Below are positions 4,233-35,232 of a DNA stretch of 47,458 nucleotides, in pieces. Within the stretch, counting starts at the first letter, position 1, and each line of letters opens with the position of its first letter. Position numbers and translations under genes: made by a program. The notes beneath the pieces are model-generated. The model did no database searches and had not been told where the DNA came from. It saw only the letters and a list, made by a program, of their open reading frames with translations. Location: contig JAUVIQ010000002.1 in assembly GCA_030592655.1 (NCBI GenBank), forward strand, positions 1-47,458, written 5' to 3'. The DNA comes from Planctomycetales bacterium (GTDB lineage: Bacteria; Planctomycetota; Phycisphaerae; SM23-33).

Positions 4233-4455
4233 ATGTCCACAATAAACATATTTACCAGCATCGCTAATGCTATATTATATAACATGATATATAATTTTCA
4301 ACAGTTATCTACTAATATTATGTCCTATTTTATGTCCACCAACATTAGTAAAATGCGTGAGATTGTTATTAGTACGACAGCACAAGTTCGTCGTCTGGCT
4401 GTGATAGATACCCCCAAAAATGGTGGGTGGCGTGGTGCTCGATGCGAGGGGGGGG

Positions 4456-5479: not shown

Positions 5480-5575
5480 TTTTTATCCGTTCAAAAGAAC
5501 GACATAATCGAAAATCGGCAGGATTTTACCCTACCTTAAGGTGAATATGTATTCTATGGCTGGTGTGGACAACAG

Positions 5576-7024: not shown

Positions 7025-7036
7025 GTGTTCTCCTTT

Positions 7037-8794: not shown

Positions 8795-8810
8795 GATTCG
8801 CTCCTCAAAA

Positions 8811-8841
8811 GGATTGCGGATTGCGGATTGTGGATTGCGGA
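8811..8841. repeat. Tandem (GGATTGY)x4 heptamers in the 5' leader of the HTH gene
   Basis: Read directly: ggattgc ggattgc ggattgt ggattgc gga. Confidence 0.9.
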
Positions 8842-9058
8842 CCCACGGTCCTATGGGGATTCTTCGGTAATCCGGTATTCCCGATGCCCGCTGTCTGTAT
8901 TACAAATACCATATATTACATAAGTATGACAACTATCATGCAGATGTCAAGAATAATCTTACAGAAAATATCTACAAATAGTTAGAAAGTACGGATTGAC
9001 GGGTCTATACTATTGGGCGACTTGGGGTTAGGGATTCAGAACGAGGGAGAAAATAATT

Positions 9059-9856
9059 ATGAGCCTCGGCGAATTAATACGTAACCGGCGTGAAGAAAAA
9101 CAACTCACGCAGGACCAAACGGCGGCGCGGGCGGGTATCTCTAAGCAGTACCTCTCGAACATTGAAACCGACCGGATAAAGAACCCCCCTTCCGACGGTG
9201 TGCTTGAGCGATTGGAAGTCGAACTGGAGTTCAAAGCGGGTCAGTTGCGAAAACTGGCCCACATGGCGAGAACGCCGATGGACGTCCGTGCAGAGCACGA
9301 ATCCCTCACCGCCGAGGTCGAAAAACTCCGAAGCATCCTGAAGCAACTACAACTACTGGCGGGACGGAAAAAGTCCACGCAGAGCAGGACGAAAATAAAC
9401 GCCATCGCACGCCAATTGAAATCCGCGAAATCCAACGTCTCGGACGCACTGTCGGCCGGAAGGACTGTTCCCATTATAAACAAGGTCTCTGCCGGGTATC
9501 CGCACCACTTCACCGACCTGGATTACCCGCCCTCGGTGGCCGACGAATACATCCGGTGCCCCGACGTACACGACGCGCAGGCATTCGCCGCACACATCGT
9601 CGGCGATTCGATGGAGCCGAACTATACAGAGGGAAACCTGGTAATTTTTTCGCCCAATACGCAGGTCAGGAGCGGGGACGACTGCTTCGTCCGCTTCAGC
9701 GCCGACAGTTCCACCACGTTCAAGCGGTTTTACACCGCCGAGGGCGGATCGATACGCCTCCAGCCACTGAACGACAAATACCCCGCCGAGATATACGAAC
9801 GCGAGGATATCGACGGCCTCTGGCCTGCGATTATGCGGATCGAACGAATACGATAG
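9059..9856 (+). CDS. XRE-HTH / S24-peptidase LexA/CI-like autocleavable repressor
   Basis: The N-terminal HTH is LTQDQTAARAGISKQYLSNIE. There is an Ala-Gly site in KVSAGYP, a catalytic Ser in GDSMEP and a Lys in TTFKRFY. It is divergent from the HTH-ATPase-TerL operon. Confidence 0.85.
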   Translation: MSLGELIRNRREEKQLTQDQTAARAGISKQYLSNIETDRIKNPPSDGVLERLEVELEFKAGQLRKLAHMARTPMDVRAEHESLTAEVEKLRSILKQLQLLAGRKKSTQSRTKINAIARQLKSAKSNVSDALSAGRTVPIINKVSAGYPHHFTDLDYPPSVADEYIRCPDVHDAQAFAAHIVGDSMEPNYTEGNLVIFSPNTQVRSGDDCFVRFSADSSTTFKRFYTAEGGSIRLQPLNDKYPAEIYEREDIDGLWPAIMRIERIR

Positions 9857-9930
9857 ACGTGAGGAAACTGAATCGTCGCCGTTCCGGTCGAAGACCCGCC
9901 TGGGCGGGCGACGGCTAAACGAGAAGATCA

Positions 9931-11664: not shown

Positions 11665-11758
11665 TTTTGCAGGCTGGGTGCCGTGGCCGCTGTGTTTGCC
11701 TGTCCCCAGGGGGCGGCCACGGCACCCATCTCGATAACGAATATTTGAGGAGCGAACC

Positions 11759-12169
11759 ATGAGCAAACTGACGCGAACCGCATTGGCAATCGAGAAGGAC
11801 CTGCTGGGCCGGTTCGATAAGTGGATGACAAGCCACGGCTACTCCAACCGTTCCGAGGCGTTGCGCGATTTGATACGCTCTGCGCTGGTGGAGGCAGAGT
11901 GGGAAAAACCCGCATCGAAGGTCATCGCCACGCTGTCGATTATCTACGACCATGAGCAGCGCGAACTTCCCCGGCAACTCACTGCCCTCCAGCACGCCGA
12001 CCATCACGCCATACTTTGCAGCCAACATGTACACCTGGACCGACACAAATGCCTGGAGGTAATCGTCATGTCCGGTACAACCAGGCAGTTACGACGGATA
12101 TGCGACGCGATTACCGCAGCCAAGGGCGTACTGGCAGGGAAACTGACGCTACTGAGCCGGAAGTTGTAG
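11759..12169 (+). CDS. nikR: Nickel-responsive regulator NikR
   Basis: The ribbon-helix-helix N-terminus includes NRSEALRDLIRSAL. The C-terminal metal site QHVHLDRHKCLEV is comparable to E. coli NikR LHVHINHDDCLEI (recalled from memory). Confidence 0.85.
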   Translation: MSKLTRTALAIEKDLLGRFDKWMTSHGYSNRSEALRDLIRSALVEAEWEKPASKVIATLSIIYDHEQRELPRQLTALQHADHHAILCSQHVHLDRHKCLEVIVMSGTTRQLRRICDAITAAKGVLAGKLTLLSRKL

Positions 12170-12171
12170 AT

Positions 12172-12714
12172 CTACCTATCAACGACAATAACGGTGTTCC
12201 GAGGTCCCAGTGTTTCTGCCTCCGGGTCTTCCGTTTTCGGCGAATCCCTGCCTCCATCCACAAGAATGCTCGGTTGGGCAAATTCTCCATTCCTCTGCCT
12301 ATCTAACCGCGTCACAAAACACAGCGCCGCAATCAGCACGGTCAGCGCAGCCATGGAGACAAGATAAACAATCAGCACCCGGGCAAGTCTGCTGCGGGCG
12401 AGGTTGTCGCCGGCTGGTTCGCTGCGAGCAGGTTCGCTCTGCGATTTACAGATCGCCCGGCGGACATAAAACACGCCTTTGGGACTGGTCTCACGAAGAC
12501 TTGTCAAATCCGCCTGGGGTGAGTCTCGTCGAACCGCCTGCCTGATACCCAGACTCGAAACGTGCCGGCGCGCGATACTCGCCAGAACGTCTTCATCGCT
12601 CTCACTCGCCGAACGAAAAGGAACTAAAGGCGAACCGCCTGTGGTGAGCCTCGTCGAACCGTAGCGCCGGAGCGAATCCCAGGCAGGTATGTAGTTGTCA
12701 TTTTGTTCTGTCAT
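12172..12714 (-). CDS. Tail-anchored membrane protein, paralogue 1
   Basis: I trimmed the start to MTEQNDNYIPAWD by alignment with paralogue 2 (MADQKGNYVPDE). The two share EDVLASIARRHVSSLGIRQAVRRDSPQAD. A single C-terminal hydrophobic helix is VLIVYLVSMAALTVLIAALCFV. Confidence 0.55.
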   Translation of the reverse strand: MTEQNDNYIPAWDSLRRYGSTRLTTGGSPLVPFRSASESDEDVLASIARRHVSSLGIRQAVRRDSPQADLTSLRETSPKGVFYVRRAICKSQSEPARSEPAGDNLARSRLARVLIVYLVSMAALTVLIAALCFVTRLDRQRNGEFAQPSILVDGGRDSPKTEDPEAETLGPRNTVIVVDR

Positions 12715-12763
12715 GATCATCAGGTGATTATACAACCTGACACTCCTTAGCCGAAAGTTATAA

Positions 12764-12786
12764 ATGGTGGATTGGTGGATTGGTAA
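12764..12786. repeat. Tandem (ATTGGTGG)-like octamers, about 3 copies
   Basis: Read directly: atggtgg attggtgg attggtaa, in the spacer between the two paralogues. Confidence 0.85.
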
Positions 12787-12836
12787 AATGATTCCCGATT
12801 CTGTTTTCCCGTAGGGACACTTTGTGTTTTTGCTTT

Positions 12837-12871
12837 TCCCTGGTCCCTAATCCCAAGTCCCTAGTCCCTGG
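12837..12871. repeat. Tandem (TCCCWRG)x5 heptamers overlapping the stop of paralogue 2
   Basis: Read directly: tccctgg tccctaa tcccaag tccctag tccctgg. The stop codon (cta, 12861-12863) lies inside the array. Confidence 0.9.
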
Positions 12872-13340
12872 TCAAGAAGTACAGCGCCACAGCTAATCCC
12901 GTCAGCGCAGCGACAACGGCGAGGTGAATAATCAGCCTGAGGGCAGGTTCATCTCGTATTGATTTGTGCATCGACTTCCGGCGAGCTCGACGAACCAGGA
13001 ACACCTCCGGCGAATGGGGCGAACGAAGGTCTATCGGCTTGCGCACAGGCATTTCGACTTCGCTCAATACAGGCATTTCGACTTCACTCAATACAGGCAT
13101 TTCGACAGGACTCACCACGGGCGGTTCGGCGGGGCTCACCACGGGCGGTTCGACGGAGCCCACAGGCGGTTCGGACGACACCCAATCCGCCTGCGGTGAG
13201 TCTTGTTGAACCGTCTGCCTGAGGCCGAAACGGGAAGCATGCTGACGCGCAATGCTCGCCAGGACATCATCATCGCCTTCATCGGCTGGTCGATGGGGCG
13301 CTTTCTCGTCAGGTACGTAGTTGCCCTTTTGGTCTGCCAT
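12861..13340 (-). CDS. Tail-anchored membrane protein, paralogue 2, with internal peptide repeats
   Basis: DDVLASIARQHASRFGLRQTVQQDSPQAD is shared with paralogue 1. Internal repeats are EPPVVSP x2 and VEMPVLSE x2.5. The C-terminal helix is LIIHLAVVAALTGLAVALYFL. Confidence 0.6.
   Translation of the reverse strand: MADQKGNYVPDEKAPHRPADEGDDDVLASIARQHASRFGLRQTVQQDSPQADWVSSEPPVGSVEPPVVSPAEPPVVSPVEMPVLSEVEMPVLSEVEMPVRKPIDLRSPHSPEVFLVRRARRKSMHKSIRDEPALRLIIHLAVVAALTGLAVALYFLTRD
13045..13180. repeat. Two families of 24-nt tandem repeats inside the coding sequence
   Basis: acaggcatttcgacttc(g/a)ctcaat occurs about 2.6 times (13045-13108). (g/a)ctcaccacgggcggttcg(g/a)cgg occurs twice, plus a degenerate copy (13109-13180). 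Confidence 0.85.
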
Positions 13341-13415
13341 GGTTATTAATGATGATTATACCGATTGTCAAACGCGAAAAGGTATGAAAAATCTATCTTG
13401 TCAAAGGAGCCGAAA

Positions 13416-14060
13416 ATGAATAACGCCCACATCATTAATCCGATCCTGATTTTAGTGCTGACTTCTGTAATGATTCTCTACATAACCGGGTGCCGGAACC
13501 ATTCGTCCACCAGTCCCGATAGTCAGGTCGTTCATTCGCCCCTGGCCGGTAAAAAAATACTCATGGTCATCGCTCCGAAGCAGTTCCGCGATGAGGAACT
13601 TTTTGTTCCGAGGGAGTATTTTCTGGTTCGCGGCGCGAAAGTAACGGTAGCAAGTTCAGCAACGGGTGAGATTCGCGGAATGTTGGGGCGGACGTTCTCG
13701 CCGGATGCGAAACTCGCCGACGTTTCGGCTACAGACTTCGACGCGGTTATTTTTGTCGGAGGGGGCGGCGCAGAGGCGTATTTCGACGATCCGGTCGCCC
13801 ACAAACTCGCCCGCGACGCGGACGCCGGCGGGAAAGTCCTCGGCGCTATCTGCATCGCGCCGGCCATTCTCGCCAAGGCCGGCGTGCTGAAAGGGCGTTC
13901 GGCGACGGCATTCGCTTCGGTCCGTGAAATACTCGTATCCGGCGGGGCAAGGGTTATGGATTCGGCATGTGTCCGGGAAGGTCGGATCGTTACGGCGGAC
14001 GGACCGGCAGCGGCTGAAGAATTCGCCTCCGACGTCGCCAAGGCGCTGACCGCAAACTAA
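13416..14060 (+). CDS. DJ-1/PfpI-family protein with lipoprotein-like N-terminus
   Basis: I trimmed the start to ATG 13416 (AAAGGAG upstream). The signal/lipobox-like N-terminus is ILVLTSVMILYITGC. The nucleophile-elbow Cys is in GAICIAPAILAKAG. Confidence 0.8.
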   Translation: MNNAHIINPILILVLTSVMILYITGCRNHSSTSPDSQVVHSPLAGKKILMVIAPKQFRDEELFVPREYFLVRGAKVTVASSATGEIRGMLGRTFSPDAKLADVSATDFDAVIFVGGGGAEAYFDDPVAHKLARDADAGGKVLGAICIAPAILAKAGVLKGRSATAFASVREILVSGGARVMDSACVREGRIVTADGPAAAEEFASDVAKALTAN

Positions 14061-14118
14061 AACCGACGGATAAACCCTGATGTGCATCGGGACGAATCCG
14101 CCGAAACGGACCGGAATC

Positions 14119-14148
14119 GATTCGTGCCGATTCGTGCCAATTGGTGCC
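14119..14148. repeat. Tandem decamers gattcgtgcc x2 plus aattggtgcc
   Basis: Read directly, just upstream of the putative promoter of the GHKL operon. Confidence 0.85.
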
Positions 14149-14156
14149 ACGTCGAA

Positions 14157-14185
14157 TTGACTTGTCCCGGCAATTGTCGTAATCT
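14157..14185 (+). promoter_or_regulatory. Sigma-70-like promoter candidate for the GHKL-dcm-vsr operon
   Basis: TTGACT (14157-14162), a 17-nt spacer, then TAATCT (14180-14185). Confidence 0.4.
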
Positions 14186-14192
14186 CTCGGCC

Positions 14193-14363
14193 ATGCCCGA
14201 CGAGAAAGCGATACTCGCCGCATTGAGAAAGTTTGCCGACGGCGTGACGGCCAAGATAACAACCTTGACCACCGGCGAGCCTAGCGGCAGGCAGTTCGCC
14301 TCATCAGGGGCCTTTTACTTATGGGGACTTTGCCGAGCGCGTCCTCACGATGGAGGTCGATAA
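14193..14363 (+). CDS. Small upstream ORF (56 aa); possibly a leader peptide or a gene remnant
   Basis: ATG at 14193 lies 8 nt after the -10 box. MPDEKAILAALRKFADGVTAKITTLTTGEP looks protein-like, but the rest (SGRQFASSGAFYLWGLCRARPHDGGR) does not. It ends at TAA, 3 nt before the GHKL start. Confidence 0.2.
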   Translation: MPDEKAILAALRKFADGVTAKITTLTTGEPSGRQFASSGAFYLWGLCRARPHDGGR

Positions 14364-14366
14364 CCA

Positions 14367-16436
14367 ATGGCCGCTGAAACACACCAAGTACTTCTTCCCG
14401 GGCGTACGCCGGAAGAACTTGCTCTTACGATCGCCGGGAATATCGTGAAACACCTCGGCGTACAGATGTACGCGGGGCGGCCCGTTCCAGCAATTGCAGA
14501 ACTTATCTCTAACTCATGGGACGCGGACGCGATAAAGGTCAATGTCCGCCTTCCGCTGGATGAAGCTTGGGATCCGACCAACCAAGACCAATTCATTGAG
14601 GTTTCAGACAACGGCAATGGCATGACTTGGGACATGGTTCGGTACGCATACCTTAACGTAGGGCGTGATCGACGCAAGACGGAAAAGACCGACAAATCTC
14701 CGGGAGGCCGCCCACTTCAAGGACGAAAAGGTGTTGGGAAGCTAGCGGGGTTTGGTATCGCCGACACTCTGGAAGTTCAGACGGTCTATAAGGACGCTGA
14801 CTCCAGTGTGAAGGAGAAGGCGCTTATTTGGTTCAAGCTAGATCTGTCGGACATAACGAAAATAGAGCAGGGCCCGGCTCCCGTTGACGTGGTATTCGCC
14901 GGTCCGATTAGCAGGGCTCCTGCGGGTGCGAGAAAGACCAAAGGAACGACGGTTGCTCTGCGGCACCTGCACGAACGGAAGGCCCGGAACGCTGACCGTT
15001 TTCACCATAGCATGGCGCAACGATTCTTGCTCATTGGGCCAAAGTTTCGCGTTCGTATAAATGGCGAAGACCTACGCGAAGAAGACATTCAACTTCAGTG
15101 GAGGGAACCAAAGAACGGCTGGGCCACGGACAACGTTACGGGTTGCGGTCCTATCAAGTACTGGATTGGATTCACCCCGCAGCCACGCAAACAAAACGAA
15201 GGAGAATTGAGCGGGATCCTCATTTACACTAGGGGTAAAATTTCACAGGAGCAGACTTTCTTTGAAATAAGCGGAGGCGTTACCGGTCAGCACGGCCTGC
15301 GCTACATGGTTGGCATGGTGAAGGCCGAATGGCTTGATGCTGGTATTGATGCGCCGGACCACATTGCTACGCCGAGAGATTCGATTGCATGGGAGAGCCC
15401 TGAGGGAACTGCGTTCAAGGAGTGGGGACAGAATCTACTAAAAAAATGCCTTTCTGAATGGGCTAAGTTCCGCGCCTCTCTGCGAGAAAAGCAGATCAAG
15501 GAAGTGAGTCCGGAGTTAATGACCCGTATCGAACGGCTGGCCCCCTCCTATAGAGATGTCGCGCTGCAATTTGTGGACAAGTTCAAGTCGGTGGAGATGG
15601 AACCAACCGAATTCCAGGACATTTTGTCTTGGTTCCTCGACGCATTGGAAAACGCAACCTTACGAAGCATACTCCAAAAACTCAGAGAGACCGACATTGC
15701 GGACCTTCGGCAATTGGACAATCTGCTTTCCAAAATGGAAGTGCGGACTGCCGTAACACTTCTTCAGATCATCGACAGCAATCTTGCTGCAATCGAAACC
15801 CTTGAAAAAATGCACCGGCAAAACGCTAAGGAACGTGGGGTTATCTCTACGCATCTGGAACGGAACCCGTGGCTCATGGATCCGACATGGATGCTCAACA
15901 AGGCCGAAGGACGAGTCGCCACTTGGATCAAGAGGGAGTTTGGGCTTGAGGAAAAGGGGGCGGCTGGAGATGCCGACCGGGCTGATTTCTTCTGCGTTGC
16001 CGTTGGTGGGACGCTGCACATTGTCGAGATCAAACGGGGTGCGCACGTTGCTACGGTCAAAGATGTAAATCAGGCGGATAAGTACCGAAAGTACGTCGTA
16101 AAACGATTTAGCGAGCTGACGGACCATAAGGCGATCAGGTACGCATATGTCCAGAGTCACCTCATCGCCGCCGAGCTACACGATGACGCGCAAAGCATTA
16201 AGGAATCCTTCGCCAACAGCGGTTGGGTGTTCTTCACAACCTGGGATGACCTCATCGAACGAGCGAAGCAGAGTCACAGCCAATTCCGCGAGATTCTTCA
16301 AAAGAGAGCGAAAGAATCCGAGGAATCCTCATATCTTGGGGTGCAGAACGTTTCTGGTGGCGGTGCGAGTGAACCCCAGCCAACAAAGAAGGCCCAAAAG
16401 AAGGCGAAACGCAAGAACAAAGGGCGCAGGAAATGA
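14367..16436 (+). CDS. GHKL (HATPase_c_3/MORC-like) ATPase fused to a C-terminal PD-(D/E)xK (Shedu/DUF4263-like) nuclease domain
   Basis: Bergerat motifs are [12 protein letters not shown] (N box), DNGNGM (G1) and [12 protein letters not shown] (G2). The C-terminal [20 protein letters not shown]...QADKYRKY fits D-x13-E-x-K plus Q..Y. A Lys-rich tail reads [16 protein letters not shown]. Confidence 0.8.
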
Positions 16437-17539
16437 GTGTCCATAGGCCTGTCGCTATAGACCTGTTTGCCGGATGCGGTGGCCTTACTAGGGGTCTCCG
16501 AGACGCGGGATTCCACGTCGCGGCGGCGGTCGAAATCAACCCCATCTCGGCGCGGACGTACAAATGGAACAACCGCCGCACCCGATTGATTGAAAAGGAC
16601 ATCCGCGAGGTGTCCGCCAAGGAACTCCTTCAAGCCGCCGGTAGTAAGCAAATCGCCCTCTTGGCCGGATGCGCCCCTTGTCAGGGGTTCTGTTCCCTGA
16701 CGGCAAAGTACAAGCGAGAGGACCCGCGCAACGAGCTTCTCCTCGTTATGGCTAAACTCATCGGGGAGATTCGGCCCGAGGCGATCATGATGGAGAACGT
16801 TCCCGGCCTTGCGGGCCGAGGGAAATCCATCTTCGACAAGTTCCTGAATGTCCTGCGGCGTCTCGGATACCAGTACGACTGGCGCATTGATCAGATGGCG
16901 GACTTCGGCCTCCCGCAATCACGCCGACGCCTAGTCCTTCTCGCCGGACACGGCTTCAAAGTGGCTTTCCCGAAGGCGTTGTACGCCCGCTCACCAGAAT
17001 GCAATTCCGGCTTGGAACCGTGGACTACGGTGAGAGATGCCATCGGTCACATGGGCGCGCCGGTTACCCTGAGCACGGCGCTCGGTAACGGTGGTCCGCA
17101 GTCGCACAACTGGCACGTGGTTCGAGATCTTCAATCGCAAACCAAGGAGCGCCTAAAAGCGGCAGAACCCGGACAGACATGGTTGAAGGTTAACGAATCA
17201 ATACGCCCGCGTTGCCATCAGAACGGTTACAATGGCTTCACCAACGTGTACGGCAGGATGGCGTGGGACCAAGCGTCACCAACCATCACGGGTGGATGCA
17301 CGACCCCCTGCAAGGGAAGGTTTGGCCACCCGGACAAACGTCGATACACTATCTCCGTCCGTGAAGCAGCGCTGCTCCAAGCGTTCCCGGAGAACTATCG
17401 CTTTGTCACCGACCAGATGGATGCTGCGTGCGACATGATTGGCAACGCCGTTCCGCCCCTGTACGCGAAGTTAGCCGCCAAAGAGGTCCTGGCCGCTCTG
17501 AAGGAACGCAACCATCGCAAGGGGGGCGCCAAACGATGA
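16433..17539 (+). CDS. dcm: DNA (cytosine-5)-methyltransferase
   Basis: Motif [10 protein letters not shown], motif IV APCQGF, motif VI ENVPGL, motif [14 protein letters not shown], motif X GNAVPP. ATGA overlap with the upstream gene at 16433-16436. Confidence 0.9.
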
Positions 17540-17985
17540 GCCGGTGGCCGGGTAATGCTGAGATGGAGCGCACAACGTTTGGCGGCTTGTCTCGCGGGCA
17601 ATTGATGTCCCGCATTCACAGCACCGGAAACCAGACGACGGAAAAGCGACTGGTTGTGCTACTCCGAAGAGCGGGCTTGAGCGGATGGCGCAGGCACCGC
17701 CCGCTTCTCGGACGGCCCGACTTCGTGTGGCCAAAGGCCAAGGTCGTCGTCTTCGTTGACGGATGTTTCTGGCACGGCCATGACTGCGGCAAAAACGTTA
17801 GCCCAAAGACTAACGTTGAAGCTTGGCGCGAGAAGATACGCCGTAACAAGGAACGGGACCGACGCGTAGACCGTTTACTTCGCCAGCAGGGCTGGCAGAT
17901 TGTGCGAATATGGGAATGCGAACTTGCCAAGAAGCCTGACAGCTGCATTGACCGAATCAGAAAAGCGTTGGGTACTCGAGGTTAA
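17536..17985 (+). CDS. vsr: Very-short-patch repair endonuclease
   Basis: [24 protein letters not shown] is the Vsr hallmark. I trimmed the start to ATG 17536, which overlaps the dcm stop as ATGA. Confidence 0.9.
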
Positions 17986-18965: not shown

Positions 18966-19048
18966 TGGGAGCGGGTGGATTCGAACCACCGTAGGCGTAC
19001 GCCGTCAGATTTAAAGTCTGATCCCTTTGTCCACTCGGGCACACTCCC
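18966..19048 (-). tRNA. tRNA-Tyr-like class II tRNA with anticodon UUA (ochre-suppressor type)
   Basis: Reverse complement (83 nt): GGGAGTGTGCCCGAGTGGACAAAGGGATCAGACTTTAAATCTGACGGCGTACGCCTACGGTGGTTCGAATCCACCCGCTCCCA. The acceptor stem is GGGAGTG/CGCTCCC (one G.U). The anticodon stem is TCAGA/TCTGA with loop CTTTAAA, giving anticodon TTA (19012-19014). It has a long variable arm, a T arm GGTGG-TTCGAAT-CCACC, discriminator A, and no encoded CCA. The D and anticodon arms closely resemble E. coli tRNA-Tyr as I recall it, except for G34 to U. Confidence 0.8.
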
Positions 19049-19088
19049 AATCGGGGATAGGATGATACCATCATTTCAGAATTAGTCA

Positions 19089-19160
19089 AGCCAGCGGAGG
19101 GACTCGAACCCACAACCCCGGCTTTACAAAAGCCGTGCTCTACCGTTGAGCTACGCTGGC
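19089..19160 (-). tRNA. tRNA-Thr (anticodon UGU)
   Basis: Reverse complement: GCCAGCGTAGCTCAACGGTAGAGCACGGCTTTTGTAAAGCCGGGGTTGTGGGTTCGAGTCCCTCCGCTGGCT. The acceptor stem is GCCAGCG/CGCTGGC. The anticodon stem is CGGCT/AGCCG with loop TTTGTAA. The T stem has one U-U mismatch. Confidence 0.9.
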
Positions 19161-26487: not shown

Positions 26488-27356
26488 TTTTTTTCCAGTC
26501 TTTTTACATCGTCAGGCGCCGCGAGGAACTGAAGGACCTCCGGCAACACGTACCTGATGAACTCCCCGCAGATCGCGTCGCTTTTTTCGACATCCGGTTC
26601 AGGAGCCTGTGTCGCTACCTGGATTTTCGCAAAGTAACAGTACTTCAGGGATAATGCTCCCATATCCCATCGGACCTTTATCCAATCGTGGGCTGGCTCG
26701 CCGTTCATGCTGAAAATGTGATATTGCGATGCCCGTGTAACAGTACCGTCTTTCCGGCGAATCTCGTAGGTGGTGCGGTACACCTTGACGTCCTGCCACT
26801 GATTCCACTTCGGCAACAAAGGTAAGAGGTTCACCGGGACCGGTTTGCACTGATTATAAACAATCGTTCCGCCGCCGGCCACAATACATCGCTCACCAAC
26901 GTGCGGTACCGCCTCAAGCAGACCGGTGTAATAGGTAATATCAAGCCTGATAAATCGACCGACACTCCTCGCTTCGGCGCGCGTATCGCGATAGATGGCC
27001 ATGTAGTACCAGTTCATATCGTGGCGCATGATACCGAGCGTATCCAGATCGTCATCACGCTGTACGAGCAGTCCGTCGGGTTCACCGTCAAGTTCCCTGT
27101 TCCTGGACAGTTCTCCGTCGCCGGCCAGAACGTATGGGCCAATTTTTTCGGGAAAGTTCGTCAGGAAATGGTTGTCAAACTCCGCATTCGCCGGTGGCGG
27201 GACGGGCTTCTTGGCAAAATACTTGCCTATCAGCACGATATTCCACGCAACCGCAGCGAGAAGGAGCATCCCGGCAGCAAGGGCGAAATGTATCCGTCCC
27301 CGCCTGTCATCAGCAGACGACGAAACCTTATCGGTATGATTGGATGGTTCCGTCAC
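26484..27356 (-). CDS. EpsI-like exosortase-associated protein
   Basis: One N-terminal TM helix (IHFALAAGMLLLAAVAWNIVLIG) precedes an extracytoplasmic domain. The start overlaps the exosortase stop as ATGA (27353-27356). The assignment rests mainly on position. Confidence 0.55.
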   Translation of the reverse strand: MTEPSNHTDKVSSSADDRRGRIHFALAAGMLLLAAVAWNIVLIGKYFAKKPVPPPANAEFDNHFLTNFPEKIGPYVLAGDGELSRNRELDGEPDGLLVQRDDDLDTLGIMRHDMNWYYMAIYRDTRAEARSVGRFIRLDITYYTGLLEAVPHVGERCIVAGGGTIVYNQCKPVPVNLLPLLPKWNQWQDVKVYRTTYEIRRKDGTVTRASQYHIFSMNGEPAHDWIKVRWDMGALSLKYCYFAKIQVATQAPEPDVEKSDAICGEFIRYVLPEVLQFLAAPDDVKRLEKK

Positions 27357-28342
27357 GAATCCGCCTCCTCGTGCCTGCCCCCAGGGGGCTCTTCATCCAC
27401 GAAAACACGCTGCAATATCCAGGCGAGCAGCCAAAGCAGACCAAATGCCGGAATCAGCATAACTATTCCCGCAAAGGTGTGCATAAAACCCTGACCCAGT
27501 TCCGGTTTATCGATGTGGTACATCCAGCAGGTAATCGCCACGCGAATGACGTTGCAGAATACGGCAATTGGAACAGCGGCTGCCACCAGAATAAGCCTCT
27601 GCCAAATAGGTTTATAATCAAGATATGCCATTGCAACGCCAAGCGCGCAGAACGCCATAAGCAGGCGCATCCCGCTGCACGCATCTGCCACGGTCAATCC
27701 ATGAGAAACGCCGCTGCGACTGGTAACGTCAAGCGCGCTTGCCTCACTGGAAATCTCCACGCTTAGAACCCTCAGGATTATCACCGCGCCCTCAGCCGCG
27801 ATATTCTGCAACGGTACGGCTATCCGCGAATAGAGTAACTCCGGGATGGGTAAAGCAAACATCAGGAACAATATCGGCAACCAGGTAATTCGGATTATCG
27901 ACCACCCGCCGAGGTACAGCACCAATCCAAAGAGCATGACAACCATGCTCATCTGTGCCAGCCAGTAACTTCCCGGAACCCGCCTAAGGACCACATACAT
28001 CCCCCCGAACAGGCTCAGCAGCATCAGCGCCAGACCCAAACTAGAGATTTTCCTCCTGGCGGCATACAACTCCATCCGGCGAATATAAAACAGGTAGATG
28101 CTGAACAGCGGGATTATAAAGCCGTGGTGCCAATTGGAATCGCTGACCCATTTACGAACCATCACATCCAGAAGTTTGAAGTGCAGCGCCACCAGCAATA
28201 TGGTCAGAACGCCGATTTTTATCAGCGTATCGCGCCCGAAACTATCGCTAAAACCGATAGTTCGGTCAGGCTGGACCATCTCGGCGAGAGCGCCGGACGA
28301 TGCCGGAGTATCTGAACCGGTTTTCCCGGAAGATTTCGTCAT
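27353..28342 (-). CDS. Exosortase (XrtA/EpsH-like)
   Basis: Polytopic membrane protein with SNWHHGFIIPLFSIYLFY, the catalytic-Cys motif VADACSGMRLLMAF, NVIRVAITC and HTFAG. PEP-CTERM substrates are encoded nearby. Confidence 0.85.
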   Translation of the reverse strand: MTKSSGKTGSDTPASSGALAEMVQPDRTIGFSDSFGRDTLIKIGVLTILLVALHFKLLDVMVRKWVSDSNWHHGFIIPLFSIYLFYIRRMELYAARRKISSLGLALMLLSLFGGMYVVLRRVPGSYWLAQMSMVVMLFGLVLYLGGWSIIRITWLPILFLMFALPIPELLYSRIAVPLQNIAAEGAVIILRVLSVEISSEASALDVTSRSGVSHGLTVADACSGMRLLMAFCALGVAMAYLDYKPIWQRLILVAAAVPIAVFCNVIRVAITCWMYHIDKPELGQGFMHTFAGIVMLIPAFGLLWLLAWILQRVFVDEEPPGGRHEEADS

Positions 28343-28466: not shown

Positions 28467-30041
28467 TTACCACTGCTTTCTCATCTTACTATTCGGCGCG
28501 ATGAGCGGTATTTCGAATTCATACTCGGAGTAGTTGCGATCATAGATGAATCCGAATCCGTAGGTCATCCGAAACGCGTTTCTCCAGACGGCCAGCGGCG
28601 TCGCCGCCCAATAACTTCCTACGGCGATTACGTCGTTTGGTTTAAGAAAAACGTCGGGCTCCCTACCGTGGAAAATATCCTGAAGTTTCAGCGGGATCGT
28701 CTGCTCCTTATCACGCCCGACTCGCCGGATGAGAATCGAATTATTAGGCCAGGCCAGAGGACCAAGGTTTCCCGCAGCCGCTACCGCCATTTTGGCCGTT
28801 ACACGCCGACCGGTGAGACTGTACACACCGGGGCGGAGCACTTCGCCCATAACATAAAACTCACCGACCTCCAGTGTCGGAATGTGGATGATGTCTTTGT
28901 CGCGGATGATGATGTTCACCGCCGGATCGCCGGCCTTGAGACGAGGAAGGTCGATAGCGATGATACGCGACATCTTCGACATGTCGTATTTGCTCCATCC
29001 GAATATATCTTCTTTGGTCTTTTCGCCTTCTCCCGGTCTTATCTGGTGCGTCTTGTCCGTCGTCGTCGCCGGAACGCTCACCCAACGCCCGTCAGAATAC
29101 ACCCACTTATACATTGCCGCAGCGGGTTTCAGACTGGGGTCTTTGGGTTTGACGGTTCCGTCGGACGGGGCAGTGGCAGGTTCCGAATCGCTTGTTGACG
29201 AGTTTTTATCCGCCGCACCGGCGCTACCGGCTATTGTCCTGGCGAGTTCGTCCAGATTCTCCTTCTTTGTCGCTTTATCATCCGTCGTCGCCGGACTGGT
29301 AGTAGTGGCCGGTTTGACCCCGGACTCGACCGGGGACGAAGGAGCGGTCGGAATCGTCGGTAAAGGAGGAAGTTCCGTCGGTAGCGACGACGGTAACGCC
29401 TGCTTCTCGCCCTTTGCGGGACGATAAATATAAAGCCACGGAATGTTAACCTGGTTAACGTCCCCACACAGCGCCAATGCCTCAAGAAGCGTAAAATCTC
29501 TTCGCAGAATACCGTAGGTTCCCGGACGCATAATCGCGCCCAGAATGCTGAAGACGTTCTGACGCGGGGCCACTACCGTTACCGACACGTTCGGGTCTCT
29601 TAATATATCCGGTTGGTACGCCTCTTTTATCCGCTCGGTCAGCTGGTCCTTGGTCAACCCCGTGGCCTTTACCTTCCCCGCCAATAACAGGTCAACGAAA
29701 CCGCTGTGGCTGACCTGTCTTTCCACGACCGTTTCGAGACCATCCTGTAGCAGGTCCAGCACGGAGATACGCAATACGTCTGTCGGACCTATAACGTAAT
29801 CTTCCTCGACGTATTGCAGGTCCGCCGGCATCGGGGGGGCTGCGTTGGGAACCATCTCCGTGGTCAGGTCGGTCGGACCGACCTGGGTGAAGATCGGATT
29901 GATCATTCCCTGCTTGGGCGCTTTGATCGACTTGCTCTGATCAAACCTGTTCCACCATCCCATTTCATTATCGCAGCCCTGCATAAACACCGCTGCAACC
30001 ATCAACAATAAAACGACAATCGACAACCTTGCGTTACCCAC
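28467..30041 (-). CDS. Polysaccharide export protein (Wza/OPX-like) with a Pro/Thr/Ser-rich insert
   Basis: GTG start with a lipobox-like VFMQGC. The Poly_export-like motif is YVIGPTDVLRISV, and SLBB-like segments include GEFYVMGEVLRPGVY. A low-complexity region spans LPPLPTIPTAPSSPVESGVKPATTTSPATT. Confidence 0.8.
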   Translation of the reverse strand: MGNARLSIVVLLLMVAAVFMQGCDNEMGWWNRFDQSKSIKAPKQGMINPIFTQVGPTDLTTEMVPNAAPPMPADLQYVEEDYVIGPTDVLRISVLDLLQDGLETVVERQVSHSGFVDLLLAGKVKATGLTKDQLTERIKEAYQPDILRDPNVSVTVVAPRQNVFSILGAIMRPGTYGILRRDFTLLEALALCGDVNQVNIPWLYIYRPAKGEKQALPSSLPTELPPLPTIPTAPSSPVESGVKPATTTSPATTDDKATKKENLDELARTIAGSAGAADKNSSTSDSEPATAPSDGTVKPKDPSLKPAAAMYKWVYSDGRWVSVPATTTDKTHQIRPGEGEKTKEDIFGWSKYDMSKMSRIIAIDLPRLKAGDPAVNIIIRDKDIIHIPTLEVGEFYVMGEVLRPGVYSLTGRRVTAKMAVAAAGNLGPLAWPNNSILIRRVGRDKEQTIPLKLQDIFHGREPDVFLKPNDVIAVGSYWAATPLAVWRNAFRMTYGFGFIYDRNYSEYEFEIPLIAPNSKMRKQW

Positions 30042-30519
30042 TTGCCTGACCTTTCAAATCGCATGTGCGTTTTTCGTTCCGCGCTCAACATCCATGACGC
30101 GAAACCGACACACTGCCGGGTTTCTTATTCCAGTCCACTCCATTATCATTCAGATACACCCCGCTTCCAAACACCTGCCTGCCAACAGGCAGACCGAATC
30201 GGCGATATTAGCATAGAAAGACATTCCATTGTCAAGAAGAACATGTCCCGTTCCTTACGGTATTTATGGTAGAGACCCACCTGCCGACAGGCAGACCTGA
30301 TAGGAATATCGGCTGGACTACTGCATATCTTGTGTTTAATACGTCCAAACGCCCCCCTTCAGCCAAGTTACGCGTGCCTTACTGCTTCGTTGGTTATGCG
30401 GCATGACCAATGTCGCGTCGTCTATTTCAACGTTACGGGGTAAAGCCGGCAGATAGCTATCCGTCGGTTTTGGTGTCCACTGCGCCCTATGCCCTACCGA
30501 ATTTTACCCATTTTTTTCC

Positions 30520-30895
30520 TTGACAGAATCGTAAAACGTGATATACTTAACAGTTGCTCTAGCCTGCTTAGGGAGCGGCAGAGCTGTTCACCTCATCGGA
30601 GCAGGATGCGGATCTCGCTCGTCCGAACCTGCTCAGGCCGCCAGGCCAAGTTCCCACGTCTTATGAAGAGTGTTTTGCCTATACAGGCATTCGCCGGAGG
30701 ATACCGGAGATTGATTTTTCGTGTCGGCAGGCGAGGTCGTCTGGGTGGAGATAAACGCCCGCCCGTCAGTAAGGTCGCCCCATTCGCCGACAGGGCAAAT
30801 ACGTTAAAACCGGTGCGACGACGGAGGTTACAGCCCGCCGGAAACACCTCAGAGAGCCCGAAGGAGACGATGGAGACGAATGGAAGAAATAAGCG
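30520..30895 (+). promoter_or_regulatory. Promoter plus conserved long 5' leader (copy A), candidate cis-regulatory RNA
   Basis: TTGACA (30520-30525), a 16-nt spacer, then TATACT (30542-30547). The next roughly 340 nt share long identical blocks with copy B (ggagcaggatgcggat, ttttcgtgtcgg, ggagataaacgcccgc, gtgcgacgacggaggt). Predicted stems keep pairing between copies. Confidence 0.5.
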
Positions 30896-30940
30896 TTTTT
30901 TGGGAAAATAGTGAGCCTTTATAAAAGCAGGAGAATAACA

Positions 30941-32251
30941 ATGAGACACAAACGAATTGCGACATTCTTGGTTGTTGGTATGATTCTTGTCACTTGGTCA
31001 TTGCTGGCTGCACCGGTTTGGGCCCAGCAGCAGCAGTACGATGTGTACAAAAATGTCCCTGATGTGGACAAGCCAGATCGGGACGCTAACGGGATTTGGC
31101 CCGATCCCGGCGATATGAGTTGCTGGCAGGCAACGGCGGCGAACCTTCTGGGCGGGGCAGGATGGGGTCTCGCGGCCAACACTCCTCAGCAAAATGCCGA
31201 TGCCATCTATGGTCACATGAACACCCACTTCGGTTGGGCCAATTCGGGCAAACCCGAAATTGCGATCAACTGGTGGCTCTACAATTATGGTTACAATTCC
31301 GACCAAGCCGGAAGCGGATGGTATCAACCGACGAAGACCTATAACGACGTAACCGTCATCAACCGAACGCTGTGCAGTTTCGATTATGACTTTCTGCTGG
31401 ATGAACTGGAACGGTGCCAGTACGTCGGCGTCAGTTGGGAGTTCTTTGATCCTGTTCTTGATGTAGGGTTCGCTCACTGTCTGACACTAATTGGCGGAAA
31501 CCACGTCGGAAACCCAAACGCCCGTCCGACAGGTAATGTTTCCCTCTGGCACGACTCCGACAGAGATGTTGGCAACGGCGTCCTTGACCCTGTCAACGAC
31601 GATCAATACACCAACACCTTTGACTTGGTACCACCGGCAGCACTCCCGCACTGGCATATCAATTACACTGCTGCGGTACCGCAAAACTGGGCGCTTGGAT
31701 ACGTAACACTGTGTCCGGGCGAGCAGAAACCGGCATCGGCCTTGGAAAATTACGACGCAGCCTGGCACCGTGACTACAACGCAGCCGGGAGCGAAATTCA
31801 GGTCTGGCGGACAGCCGGCGCCAACAAGAACTGGGGCGATCCCACCTGGGACCCGGACGCCACCGGCGATTATACCACCCTGGAGATCCCCAACGAGGAA
31901 ATCGAGAAGATGTTCAAAATGGTGTACCTGCTGGTTGATTTCAAGGATCGGTTATACGACCCTGCCGACCCCGATGGAGCGCCGGATATCAAACTTGAGG
32001 ACGACGGAGGCAACGAGGTACTCGATCTGATTATCACAATCAGCGCCGACGGTGGACAAATTCTGTACGAATGGAAAATGGACGACCAGCCTCCCTTCGA
32101 ACGGATCATCTTCCCGAACACCGACTACTACTACCTCACCGGCGACATAAAGGACTTTAATATCGCCACAGAGTGTGTCCCCGAACCGGCAACAATGGGC
32201 CTGCTGGTTCTGGGCGGCATAGGCCTGCTCATCCGCAGGAAAAGAAACTGA
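30941..32251 (+). CDS. PEP-CTERM-anchored secreted protein, possible papain-fold (C39/C1-like) peptidase
   Basis: I trimmed the start to ATG 30941 (AGGAGA upstream). The signal peptide ends AAPVWAQ. The C-terminus VPEPATMGLLVLGGIGLLIRRKRN is a PEP-CTERM sorting signal. SCWQATAANLL (C61) and GFAHCLTLIGG (H179) weakly resemble Cys/His peptidase motifs. Confidence 0.85.
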   Translation: MRHKRIATFLVVGMILVTWSLLAAPVWAQQQQYDVYKNVPDVDKPDRDANGIWPDPGDMSCWQATAANLLGGAGWGLAANTPQQNADAIYGHMNTHFGWANSGKPEIAINWWLYNYGYNSDQAGSGWYQPTKTYNDVTVINRTLCSFDYDFLLDELERCQYVGVSWEFFDPVLDVGFAHCLTLIGGNHVGNPNARPTGNVSLWHDSDRDVGNGVLDPVNDDQYTNTFDLVPPAALPHWHINYTAAVPQNWALGYVTLCPGEQKPASALENYDAAWHRDYNAAGSEIQVWRTAGANKNWGDPTWDPDATGDYTTLEIPNEEIEKMFKMVYLLVDFKDRLYDPADPDGAPDIKLEDDGGNEVLDLIITISADGGQILYEWKMDDQPPFERIIFPNTDYYYLTGDIKDFNIATECVPEPATMGLLVLGGIGLLIRRKRN

Positions 32252-32342
32252 ACATTAGAAGAATACGGCATAATCAGGCCGCTCGTTGCGGACCTGGCAG
32301 GTTACGCCGGAAAAGACAAGTAAAGATAGAGGAGTACGAAAA

Positions 32343-32996
32343 ATGAAAAAGACACTGATGCTCATTGCGGTTTTGGCGTTTGCAGCCGCACCCGTCATGG
32401 CCGAGGACATCTGGGATCCGCCGTGGGAAGAGAATCCGACCGATCCGCAATGGGAAGGCGGCGTTACCACCTACCAGCGCTGGGAGTTCGGCGAGAACCA
32501 GTACGAACCGGTAGAGATGGACAATAATTTCGGCGGCGCATCCGTCGAGTTCATCAACGGGGACTATCCCGCCTGGGTCGAAGGCTGGGACGGCACCGGC
32601 GCTGAAATCTGCACCTGGCACATCGGTGCGGATGATGTGAACGGCGGCGGAATCGACATCACCGTCTATAACAACCCCGAGCCGAACAAACGGAAGGTTA
32701 TCTTCCTCCAGGTAACTTCGGACAATACGTGGGATGCGAACGGGCCTACGAGTGATCCCCCCGGAACGACAACCTATCCCCACCCACAGAGTGGCATCGG
32801 CGGTGAGTGGTATGTGTACACCGCGCAGATCGATATTCCGATCAATCCTGAGAAAGAGGTCATCCACATCGACTTCCCGTATTGCACGAATATCGCGGAG
32901 ATCGTGGTTCATACGATCTGCGTTCCCGAACCGGCGACGATGAGCCTGCTGGTATTGGGCGGAATCGGCGCGATCCTGCGACGCAGGAAGAAATAA
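32343..32996 (+). CDS. PEP-CTERM-anchored secreted protein
   Basis: I trimmed the start to ATG 32343 (GAGGAG upstream). The signal peptide is MKKTLMLIAVLAFAAAPVMA. The C-terminus is VPEPATMSLLVLGGIGAILRRRKK. Confidence 0.85.
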   Translation: MKKTLMLIAVLAFAAAPVMAEDIWDPPWEENPTDPQWEGGVTTYQRWEFGENQYEPVEMDNNFGGASVEFINGDYPAWVEGWDGTGAEICTWHIGADDVNGGGIDITVYNNPEPNKRKVIFLQVTSDNTWDANGPTSDPPGTTTYPHPQSGIGGEWYVYTAQIDIPINPEKEVIHIDFPYCTNIAEIVVHTICVPEPATMSLLVLGGIGAILRRRKK

Positions 32997-33075: not shown

Positions 33076-33729
33076 ATGAGGAGTGAAGTAAAGATTTTAG
33101 TAATTATGGCCGCCTTCGGTCTGTTGCTGATTACCGCGGAGGCGACAGCAATTGTCGAGCCTGGTGGTCCGATCACCGACACCTTCTGGGTTGAGGTTGA
33201 CGCAGACGGTGCAGCTATCGGTGGCGGTAGCGGCTACGACGCCGACGGCGACGGTGAGGGCGAGTGGTATCACTACCCGAATACCGGGTGGTGGAACGAG
33301 TGGTTCTACGACCATCCCTTCGACCCGGAGCGATGGAAAAAGATTGATATTTCCTTCAACATCGTTCCGCTCGATCCGGCGCTGGACAGTTATGCCGAGG
33401 TTACGTATAACTGGTCAACGCCGCTCTATCCGGCGAACCCCGACCAGCCGCCTCTTCCGGAGGGTCTGACGCCCGAACTGGAAGCTGACTGGATCGTGCG
33501 CGATGAACCGTACATCTTCGAGGGCGAAGTCCCCGTAGATGGTGCTTGCGTCACCGACTCTATCGATATTCTGGAATACAACCCGGAATGGATATCGGTC
33601 GATATTCAAGGATACAACTTCGAGATCACCTGCGGGTGCATCACTCACGAGTGCATCCCCGAGCCGGCGACGATGAGCCTGCTGGTTCTGGGCGGAATCG
33701 GCATGCTGGTGAGACGACGCCGGAAATAA
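33076..33729 (+). CDS. PEP-CTERM-anchored secreted protein
   Basis: The signal peptide is MRSEVKILVIMAAFGLLLITAEA. The C-terminus is IPEPATMSLLVLGGIGMLVRRRRK. Confidence 0.85.
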   Translation: MRSEVKILVIMAAFGLLLITAEATAIVEPGGPITDTFWVEVDADGAAIGGGSGYDADGDGEGEWYHYPNTGWWNEWFYDHPFDPERWKKIDISFNIVPLDPALDSYAEVTYNWSTPLYPANPDQPPLPEGLTPELEADWIVRDEPYIFEGEVPVDGACVTDSIDILEYNPEWISVDIQGYNFEITCGCITHECIPEPATMSLLVLGGIGMLVRRRRK

Positions 33730-33743
33730 GTTGCAAACAAAAT

Positions 33744-33775
33744 CCTGCCCTACCCTGTGGGGCGGGTTTGGTTTT
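33744..33775 (+). terminator. Rho-independent terminator
   Basis: cctgcccta / tggggcggg forms a 9-bp stem with two G.U pairs and a 5-nt loop, followed by tttggtttt. Confidence 0.6.
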
Positions 33776-33777
33776 CA

Positions 33778-33814
33778 CCATTGTCCGGTGTCCTGACCGG
33801 ACACCGGACAATGG
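33778..33814. repeat. Perfect 16-bp hairpin built from tandem heptamers (TGTCCGG)2 / (CCGGACA)2
   Basis: ccattgtccggtgtcc (33778-33793), loop tgacc, ggacaccggacaatgg (33799-33814). Confidence 0.85.
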
Positions 33815-33864
33815 GTTTATACCGTGAACACAACGGGCACGCCTTCTTTTCACCGTTTTTTTCC

Positions 33865-34260
33865 TTGACAAAACCGCAAAACGCGGTACACTCATTATTG
33901 TTCCAACTCTCAGAATCGAACTCTCATTCAGAGAGCAACGGAGTTCATTTGTCTCGAATTGGAGCAGGATGCGGATATCGCTCGTTCGACCTGCTCGGAC
34001 CGTCAAGTCGGGTTCCCGCGTCTTGCAAGGAGTGCTTATTTGCTTGTCCAGGCATTTGCCGAGAAACATCGGAGAATGATTTTTTCGTGTCGGTAGGCAA
34101 AGTGGTCTGGGCGGAGATAAACGCCCGCTCATCAGTGAAACCGCTCAATCGGCCCGACAGGACAAATACGCTAAACCAGTGCGACGACGGAGGTCATAAC
34201 CCGTCGAAAACACCCCGTGAAACCCAAAGGAGACAATAGAGACAAAAGGAAAAATGGACG
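33865..34260 (+). promoter_or_regulatory. Promoter plus conserved long 5' leader (copy B)
   Basis: TTGACA (33865-33870), a 16-nt spacer, then TACACT (33887-33892). The leader is paralogous to copy A (see that entry). Confidence 0.5.
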
Positions 34261-34319
34261 TTTACCGTAAGAAACAGGGGTATTGGAATGAACAGGAGGA
34301 TGCCCCCGACTTGTTCTGA

Positions 34320-34415
34320 TTGCAGAGCGATTACGCTGCAAATGTTCCCGAACCGTTCACAATGACGCTGCTGGTGCTCGGTTCGGCCGGCTTAATCCTC
34401 CGCCGGAAAAGATAA
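34320..34415 (+). pseudogene. Remnant of a PEP-CTERM gene (C-terminal sorting signal only)
   Basis: The frame opens after TGA at 34317-34319 and reads LQSDYAANVPEPFTMTLLVLGSAGLILRRKR*. That is a complete PEP-CTERM tag with no mature domain and no ATG. Confidence 0.5.
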
Positions 34416-34501
34416 AGAGAGGCGAAGCTATAGAGAGTTGGTTTTATCGGAATTTGGAAACAATTAACGAACAGGAAAACATTTCAGAAAAGGAGCAAAA
34501 A

Positions 34502-35161
34502 ATGAAAACCGCAACAAAAACACTGATGCTTATTGCTGTACTGGCGTTTGCAGCCGCACCGACAATGGCGAACCCTGTGAATGTGTACAGTCAGGACGGT
34601 CCTCAGGATCCGCTGGTCATCGAAGGTCCGGTACACGAATTGGGCGACGGGTTCCCGGCCAACGAATTGATCGAATCATCCAATCGGCCCACGGATGAGA
34701 CGGCATGCGATGATCCTGGCAGCGAACCGGATGATCCGGCTATCCCCAACGTGCTGGTAACCATGACCAACCTTACCAGGGTTGATTGGCATGACGTTCA
34801 TTATGTTGCGGATCCGGAAACCGGTATTACCAACTTCGACGGGTGGATCGGCAACATGGGGGCGACAGACGCACAATTCGCCTTCAGGATCGACAACATC
34901 GGAATCAATAGACCGTTGGTCTCCGAGAGCATAATAGTGGACAACATCTTCCAGGCCAACGAAACGTGGGAGTTCATCATCCAAGATTTCGTCAATCAGA
35001 TGGGCGGCCCACCTACGCCCTTCGATAGCCTGGGCATTGCCGGCAGGAGCGGCGGCTGGCCTCCCTCGACGGGCAGCATCATTGCGGTTCCCGAACCGGC
35101 GACAATGAGTCTGCTGGTATTGGGCGGAATCGGCATGCTGGTGAGACGACGCCGGAAATAA
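34502..35161 (+). CDS. PEP-CTERM-anchored secreted protein
   Basis: I trimmed the start to ATG 34502 (AAGGAG upstream). The signal peptide is MKTATKTLMLIAVLAFAAAPTMA. The C-terminus is VPEPATMSLLVLGGIGMLVRRRRK. Confidence 0.85.
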   Translation: MKTATKTLMLIAVLAFAAAPTMANPVNVYSQDGPQDPLVIEGPVHELGDGFPANELIESSNRPTDETACDDPGSEPDDPAIPNVLVTMTNLTRVDWHDVHYVADPETGITNFDGWIGNMGATDAQFAFRIDNIGINRPLVSESIIVDNIFQANETWEFIIQDFVNQMGGPPTPFDSLGIAGRSGGWPPSTGSIIAVPEPATMSLLVLGGIGMLVRRRRK

Positions 35162-35194: not shown

Positions 35195-35232
35195 CCAAAC
35201 CCACGGACTGCGTTCCGTGGGTTTGGTTTTTT
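35195..35232 (+). terminator. Rho-independent terminator
   Basis: ccaaacccacgga / tccgtgggtttgg forms a 13-bp perfect stem with a 6-nt loop, followed by tttttt. Confidence 0.8.

Follow-up and report, generated by a model that had tools for sequence, protein, structure and literature searches.

A candidate cis-regulatory RNA domain at the head of long leaders of PEP-CTERM papain-fold protease genes in Planctomycetota

Results

Two promoter-leader units beside an exosortase gene

The stretch of DNA analysed here (47,458 nt from a Planctomycetales bacterium of a cold-seep metagenome, hereafter the window) carries two plus-strand units in which a promoter and a long leader precede PEP-CTERM genes. 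Divergent from them lie an exosortase gene and a polysaccharide export protein gene, predicted to be the sorting system for the cargo of these units. The features of the locus are as follows.

27353-28342, minus strand: exosortase gene, divergent neighbour
28467-30041, minus strand: polysaccharide export protein gene, divergent neighbour
30511-30519, plus strand: T run before promoter A
30520-30547, plus strand: predicted promoter A, TTGACA-16-TATACT with a TG-extended -10 box, 11/12 matches (promoter scan)
30556-30655, plus strand: 5' domain of copy A, the conserved structured core of ~100 nt (covariance-model matches, pair counts)
30656-30940, plus strand: rest of leader A, lineage-specific and fast-evolving, detected by nhmmer only in the window and in loci L001, L005 and L089
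30941-32251, plus strand: cargo gene A, 436 aa, predicted to be secreted, with a PEP-CTERM anchor and an N-terminal papain-fold cysteine-protease domain (AF2, Foldseek)
32286-32996 and 33076-33729, plus strand: two further PEP-CTERM genes of operon A (Pfam/NCBIfam)
33744-33766, plus strand: terminator-like hairpin at the end of operon A, a 10-bp stem followed by TTTGGTTTTC
33865-33892, plus strand: predicted promoter B, TTGACA-16-TACACT, 10/12 matches (promoter scan)
33900-34017, plus strand: 5' domain of copy B, 73.9 bits versus 114.5 for A (covariance model)
34018-34256, plus strand: rest of leader B, homologous to 30656-30895
34257-34415, plus strand: relic of a protease-type cargo gene, 159 nt
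34502-35161, plus strand: PEP-CTERM gene now behind leader B, with the match on ORF 34454-35161 in frame with the ATG and an SD sequence, AAGGAG, upstream
35195-35226, plus strand: terminator-like hairpin at the end of unit B

A sequence-only reading of this DNA had described two plus-strand copies of a promoter-plus-leader element of about 380 nt. When the region was read and aligned, both were present, copy A at 30502-30940 and copy B at 33847-34300. Each is headed by a near-consensus σ70 box pair with a 16-nt spacer, preceded by a T run, and PEP-CTERM genes follow both leaders (three behind A and one behind B, by Pfam/NCBIfam). The box pairs and the PEP-CTERM association are as that reading had them; the five identical blocks that it listed were likewise found in both copies. 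Over ~420 alignment columns, A and B are identical at 296 of 394 aligned positions (75%); the 83% reported by the aligner is a mean column identity, not a pairwise identity. An nhmmer profile matched both copies with E about 1e-140, which excludes a chance likeness.

The reading's further claim that the leaders are non-coding also held: A and B differ by indels of 1, 2 and 5 nt, and the four close copies share no open frame. Substitutions by codon position showed no periodicity in the leader (40/30/33, 23/38/30 and 47/51/47), as opposed to 79/75/153 in neighbouring coding sequence, and with neither a conserved open frame nor a third-position bias a protein-coding leader was rejected. For a leader-peptide attenuator, we found no conserved short ORF and no frame that is open or kept in all copies; the short ORF in leader B is a relic of a gene start.

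A 5' domain conserved beyond the close relatives

Related loci were gathered by a DNA pattern scan, by contig look-ups for homologous proteins, by a cargo-protein search (82 homologues) and by a metagenome scan with its alignment (80 loci). The homologue collection that had been proposed as a check yielded, through covariance models and nhmmer, 13 copies of the 5' domain from 11 loci. By nhmmer, the full element of ~400 nt was found only in the window (two copies), in L001, another Planctomycetales bacterium (two copies), in L005, of the Phycisphaerae order SM23-33, and in L089; its first ~110 nt were additionally found in L023 and L024. A covariance model of these ~110 nt added L010, L038, L048, L066 and L096. 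A second covariance model gave no further match below E 0.01 in 490 kb, and no new copies appeared in four extra loci (L098-L101) or, with filters off, in L009, L092 and L093. These related loci divide the 380-nt element into two parts, a conserved 5' domain of ~100 nt and a fast-evolving stretch of ~280 nt.

The 5' domain is retained where the cargo proteins are only 35-50% identical, and it is missing from many homologous genes, including the 58%-identical one in L009. DNA patterns reached poorly, because their blocks sit in the lineage-specific 3' part: GAGATAAACGCC..GCGACGACGGAG matched a single GTDB genome (L001), and TTTCGTGTCGG..ATAAAYGCCCGC had no match in the JGI metagenomes. The carriers of the putative RNA family are Phycisphaerae and related Planctomycetota from sediments. 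We found the domain before papain-fold PEP-CTERM genes, together with their operon partners, and before no others; no metabolic link is apparent. None of the 4227 models of Rfam 15 matched either window copy at E up to 10, in agreement with the earlier impression that this is not a known family, and in seven further loci the 5' domain drew no Rfam match at E up to 5; at gathering score, the whole window held two tRNAs only. The literature searched contained no link between PEP-CTERM genes and an RNA motif, and the association with protease genes in Planctomycetota was not found there.

The match to the 5' domain starts 1-4 nt past the -10 box of a TTGAC-type promoter in L010, L023, L038, L048 and L066, where the promoters were found independently by regular expression. 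A promoter also directly precedes the domain in window copies A and B (by scan) and in L005 and L089 (by eye). The first helix, P1, begins 8-9 nt past the -10 box and, taking the transcript start predicted from the promoter, likely lies within a few nucleotides of the 5' end. Short, low-depth metatranscriptome contigs of relatives match 34034-34225 of B at about 94% and 30555-30676 of A at about 84%; one of these contigs reaches back 96 nt beyond the predicted start, and may reflect DNA carry-over.

Pairing in the 5' domain is kept through compensatory changes

The model of the 5' domain comprises the following elements, with coordinates for copy A.

30556-30558 with 30582-30584, plus strand: P1 outer
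30564-30568 with 30577-30581, plus strand: P1 inner
30599-30605 with 30628-30634, plus strand: P2, the 7-bp stem GAGCAGG/CCUGCUC of the earlier reading
30606-30610 with 30616-30619, plus strand: P2a, enclosed by P2
30636-30639 with 30644-30647, plus strand: P3
30571-30576 with 30650-30655, plus strand: proposed pseudoknot of GGGAGC (P1 loop) with GUUCCC (tail)

All 29 modelled pairs form in copy A. In the main alignment of the 13 related sequences, which was fitted to the model, 91.8% of 377 cells are paired; compensatory (double) changes occur in 14 pairs versus 6.9±1.8 in shuffles, a number reached by 0/500, and further pair types amount to 33 versus 26.6 (again 0/500). Slid controls, in which the partners were shifted by 1-3 columns, paired in 34-50% of cells. 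A structure-blind MAFFT alignment still gave 82.3% paired cells and 10 double-change pairs, compared with 5.1±1.8 in shuffles (5/500). With pairing of 92% and 82% and 14 and 10 compensatory pairs in the two alignments, above the shuffled and slid controls, the domain has a conserved, structured, aptamer-like fold with covariation.

The strongest support is for P2, whose GAGCAGG/CCUGCUC is replaced by GAGGCGG/CCGCCUC in L010 and by AAGACG/CGUCUU in L048; its pair 81-121 occurs as AU (6), GC (5), CG (1) and GU (1), pair 84-118 as AU (9), CG (3) and GC (1). P2a and P3 are altered on both strands, with GCGAG/CUCGC in L010 and GGUCG/CGACC in L066, the latter closing a loop with a 30-nt insertion. 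Three pairs are invariant in 13/13 sequences (G85-C117, G92-C98 and G126-C164), and there is an invariant G.U pair in addition. The stems GAGCAGG/CCUGCUC, CCGG/CCGG and GGGUG/CGCCC of the sequence-only reading exist and stay paired; its cgga/tccg stem gained no support from the relatives, in which GAGCG/CGCUC (P2a) is the pairing that is kept.

The GGGAGC:GUUCCC pseudoknot is probable. Its cells pair in 87-88% of cases, with compensatory changes in L048 (G-C to A-U) and L023 (C-G to U-A), and taken alone it is not significant (2 double-change pairs, matched or exceeded by 47/500 shuffles). P1 can be drawn in two registers, both of which pair well (90.8% and 86.2%). As to strand, 48 cells are G.U and 16 are A.C, so that the plus strand pairs better (91.8%) than its reverse complement (83.3%).

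Copy B is a relic of a duplicated unit

What is left of the gene behind leader B is a ribosome-binding site with some 20 codons of the N-terminus, and the final ~30 codons, which encode the PEP-CTERM tail, all in one frame that is interrupted by a stop. In L001, its counterpart (about 905-1040, minus strand) is further decayed, with a second stop and a 6-nt deletion. Since both gene ends are present, B is taken to be a duplicated promoter-leader-gene unit that has lost nearly all of its coding sequence. An interspersed repeat or MITE was rejected, because B arose by gene duplication and subsequent deletion and because the 47 kb window contains no more than two copies, which share one gene context. 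Hence, the earlier claim of paralogous copies stands as far as homology goes; B, with its cargo gene deleted and its 5' domain partly broken, is no independent second instance. The long identical blocks outside the first ~100 nt are largely a product of the recent A/B duplication.

In B, the 5' domain follows the architecture of A except that P1 carries 15 inserted nucleotides, and it forms 5/6 pairs of the pseudoknot, 3/4 of P3 and 4/5 of inner P1; its pseudoknot loop is mutated to GAGAGC in the window and to GAAAGC in L001. Between the window and L001, the B 5' domain is 82% and the relic pseudogene 88% identical, within the 81-92% seen for all regions, pseudogene included. The B domain looks to be under relaxed constraint. 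Probably, B still serves as promoter and leader for the gene at 34502-35161. On the sequence, then, A would be the intact functional unit and B a duplicate minus its protease gene.

The remaining ~280 nt of the leader

The rest of leader A contains the hairpins CCGG/CCGG, GGGUG/CGCCC and UGUCGG/CCGACA and an SD sequence, AGGAG, at 30930-30934. Plausible hairpins were obtained for this part from six sequences, and L001 has GGGCA/UGCCC, a compensatory change, in place of GGGUG/CGCCC. RNAalifold assigned this part a covariation term of about 0 (+0.68). Long-range closing helices predicted from the four close copies (GUCUU/GAGAC and UUCC/GGAA) were rejected, as they are lost in L005 and L089. Between A-type loci, identity is 65-85% in the 5' domain, 46-72% in the rest of the leader and 70-76% in the coding sequence (orthologous cargo only). 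The folding energy of the whole leaders is unremarkable (z = -1.2 and -1.0). The ~280-nt part thus offers a candidate structure that is unproven, and the structured leader of the sequence-only reading stands for its first ~100 nt, which covary across 13 sequences, and not for the other ~280 nt, which are found only in close relatives with a covariation term of ~0.

The cargo is a predicted papain-fold protease

Pfam and NCBIfam match only the PEP-CTERM tail of cargo A. Its AF2 model (pLDDT 90.8) has as top Foldseek matches Mac-1/IdeS, IdeC, T. denticola C0362 and the staphopains, and C61 and H179 are invariant in the cargo A alignment. From the fold matches, the invariant Cys and His and the PEP-CTERM tail, cargo A is predicted to be a cysteine protease of papain fold that the exosortase sorts. 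The protease family, 30941-32251 of the window and 82 homologues, is widespread and unannotated, its catalytic part being without a Pfam or NCBIfam model; the layout is a signal peptide, a papain-fold domain, a beta-rich C-terminal domain and a PEP-CTERM anchor.

In L001 (3067-3993, minus strand), the gene behind leader A encodes another, shorter cargo protein, whose signal peptide (MKRKRIATIMVVG...) is almost the same; upstream of the leader, where the window has the export gene, stands an aminotransferase-like gene. From this cargo swap, promoter, leader and signal peptide appear to be reused as a unit with different cargo.

Where homologues lack the 5' domain (L021, L036, L037, L051, L041/L043 and L009), a TTGAC-type promoter still lies 200-420 nt upstream of the gene, and the long leader is a different one. 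The leader of L021 (2680-2795) contains a canonical terminator, a 13-bp stem plus GCTTTTTTCG, 48 nt past the -10 box; by eye, the leaders of L037 and L051 resemble this arrangement. The L021 terminator indicates that leader-based control fits this gene family, and these leaders suggest that leader attenuation may be general in it.

Other features of the window

A perfect 16-nt inverted repeat with a 5-nt loop (33778-33814; CCATTGTCCGGTGTCC / GGACACCGGACAATGG) follows the terminator of operon A and precedes promoter B; its arms are kept in L001 with a different loop. Its role may be that of a second terminator, of an insulator or of a site bound by a protein. At the same relative position before promoter A, about 50 nt upstream and with no preceding plus-strand gene, is a palindrome followed by a T run (30442-30475; AAAGCCGGCAGATAGCTATCCGTCGGTTTTGG). 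The divergent region from the export gene to promoter A also holds two 30-nt direct repeats, 102 nt apart (30173-30202 and 30275-30304), each with a hairpin CTGCCTG-CCAA-CAGGCAG; in metagenome X3, 121 nt of this region (30085-30205) are replaced by a 38-nt stretch unlike the window.

From about 3000 to 17600, the window is prophage-like or mobile, and three tandem 24-nt units (ACAGGCATTTCGACTTCGCTCAAT) occupy 13045-13116, in or beside a small ORF at 12861-13340 (minus strand). Features in and after this stretch are given below.

3024-4232, minus strand: Fic protein
5576-7024, minus strand: terminase large subunit
9059-9856: HTH plus S24 peptidase repressor
14367-17539: GHKL-ATPase protein adjoining a C5 cytosine methylase
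18966-19160, minus strand: two tRNA genes

Discussion

A proposal for control after initiation

We propose, at about even chances, that the locus presents a promoter and a long untranslated leader whose 5' domain is a new cis-regulatory family in front of PEP-CTERM papain-fold protease genes. The near-consensus promoter would fire at a high and largely unregulated rate, and control would be exerted after initiation. The effector that recognizes the folded 5' domain would be a small ligand or else an RNA-binding protein, and the state of the domain would set the amount of full-length translatable mRNA through read-through, mRNA stability or ribosome access. Control after initiation is favoured by the combination of near-consensus promoters, invariant pairs including the G.U pair, and long leaders in the gene family.

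In searching for an expression platform, we found no terminator inside leader A or B. The CCGG hairpin and U run of leader A (about 30693-30720) reach only -9.4 kcal/mol (z about -1), and were rejected as an attenuator terminator, being weak and not kept in L1A, L005 and L089. Sequestration of the SD was not consistent, the predicted SD partners differing between loci; in some MFE folds (window copies A and B, L066 and L010) it is the 5' strand of P1 that pairs with the SD. Neither a NusG paralogue nor another regulator gene was found in the window. A more specific version of the proposal, which we put forward only tentatively and hold to be rather doubtful, casts the domain as the aptamer of a new riboswitch class or as a site where a dedicated RNA-binding regulator docks; the domain would switch between the two P1 registers and so couple a cell signal to the production of exosortase-sorted surface proteases. 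In one register the GGGAGC loop would be free for the pseudoknot with GUUCCC, and in the other it would be buried in an extended P1.

Alternative readings

The main rival is a passive 5' stabilizer or expression enhancer, in which a terminal structure shields the mRNA of a highly expressed surface protein from 5'-end-dependent decay and senses nothing. This would suit a P1 that starts about 8 nt past the -10 box, near the likely 5' end, as well as the near-consensus promoters, the surface-protein cargo and the lack of an expression platform among those searched for. However, a stabilizing hairpin needs no multi-helix fold, invariant pairs, invariant G.U or conserved loop and tail sequences, and the 5' domain is conserved as well as or better than the coding sequence; we therefore regard a purely passive role as rather unlikely.

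A strict riboswitch, binding a metabolite or a second messenger such as c-di-GMP, would account for a compact, probably pseudoknotted fold of aptamer size with conserved nucleotides, for the two well-pairing P1 registers and for a locus within an exosortase and exopolysaccharide system. Against it, the domain matches neither c-di-GMP-I/II nor any other Rfam aptamer, has no conserved terminator or SD-sequestering alternative, and stands before one gene family only, which is unusual for metabolite riboswitches. We consider this improbable, somewhat more so than the passive stabilizer.

Very unlikely, in our view, is that the element has no function at the RNA level, being a residue of a recent duplication whose inverted repeats are DNA operators downstream of the promoter. 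A and B are indeed paralogues, with B a relic, and the window and L001 are about equally similar everywhere, the pseudogene included. Yet the domain persists where the proteins have diverged to 35-50% identity, its helices change sequence and keep complementarity (GAGCAGG/CCUGCUC, GAGGCGG/CCGCCUC and AAGACG/CGUCUU), and the G.U asymmetry favours one strand. Operators conserve sequence, not pairing.

A CsrA/RsmA-type leader, in which a global translational repressor would bind GGA motifs located in loops and at the SD, has hardly any standing: GGA is enriched in the window copies (15 versus 9.5±2.2 and 16 versus 10.3±2.2) and CAGGAUG in P2 of A and B resembles the CsrA consensus, but the enrichment occurs in just 3/6 copies (both window copies and L005) and not in the L001 copies or L089, and the U of CAGGAUG is absent in most family members.

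Implications and comparison with known systems

RNA regulation in Planctomycetota is poorly explored, and how exosortase/PEP-CTERM cargo is controlled is largely unknown. If the proposed cis-regulatory role is correct, the covarying leader domain gives a testable handle on the control of extracellular proteolysis in sediment heterotrophs. Moreover, long leaders behind near-consensus promoters, some with terminators, suggest leader-based control as a general theme for this protease family.

The 5' domain most closely recalls the orphan leader motifs and candidate riboswitches brought to light by comparative genomics (for example Weinberg et al. 2010, PMC2864571; Rfam cis-regulatory families), in that it has several helices with compensatory changes and lies between a promoter and one gene family. 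It differs from them in having no match in Rfam 15 and in a phylum and gene association that is absent from the literature searched, and it adds a candidate to the orphan structured RNAs.

The c-di-GMP-II (RF01786) and GEMM-I (RF01051) riboswitches lie in the 5' UTRs of genes whose products are surface, biofilm or secreted proteins, and class II is pseudoknotted and of a size like that of the 5' domain. The covariance models of c-di-GMP-I/II (RF01051/RF01786) nevertheless fail on the 5' domain, and the leader lacks a recognizable expression platform. EAR/epsC (RF01735), a processive antiterminator of Bacillales eps operons, is likewise structured, pseudoknotted and tied to exopolysaccharide and biofilm loci. 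It acts within long eps operons, where it overrides internal terminators, whereas the 5' domain stands at the extreme 5' end of operons of 1-3 genes without internal terminators; with this difference in position and no model match, an identification as EAR was rejected.

Finally, leader stabilizers of the ompA type and of S-layer genes are like leaders A and B in that a strong promoter drives a long leader, structured at its very 5' terminus, in front of the gene for an abundant surface protein. Those stabilizers are simple hairpins under little sequence constraint; the 5' domain, in contrast, is a three-helix fold that is conserved, contains invariant positions and probably forms a pseudoknot.
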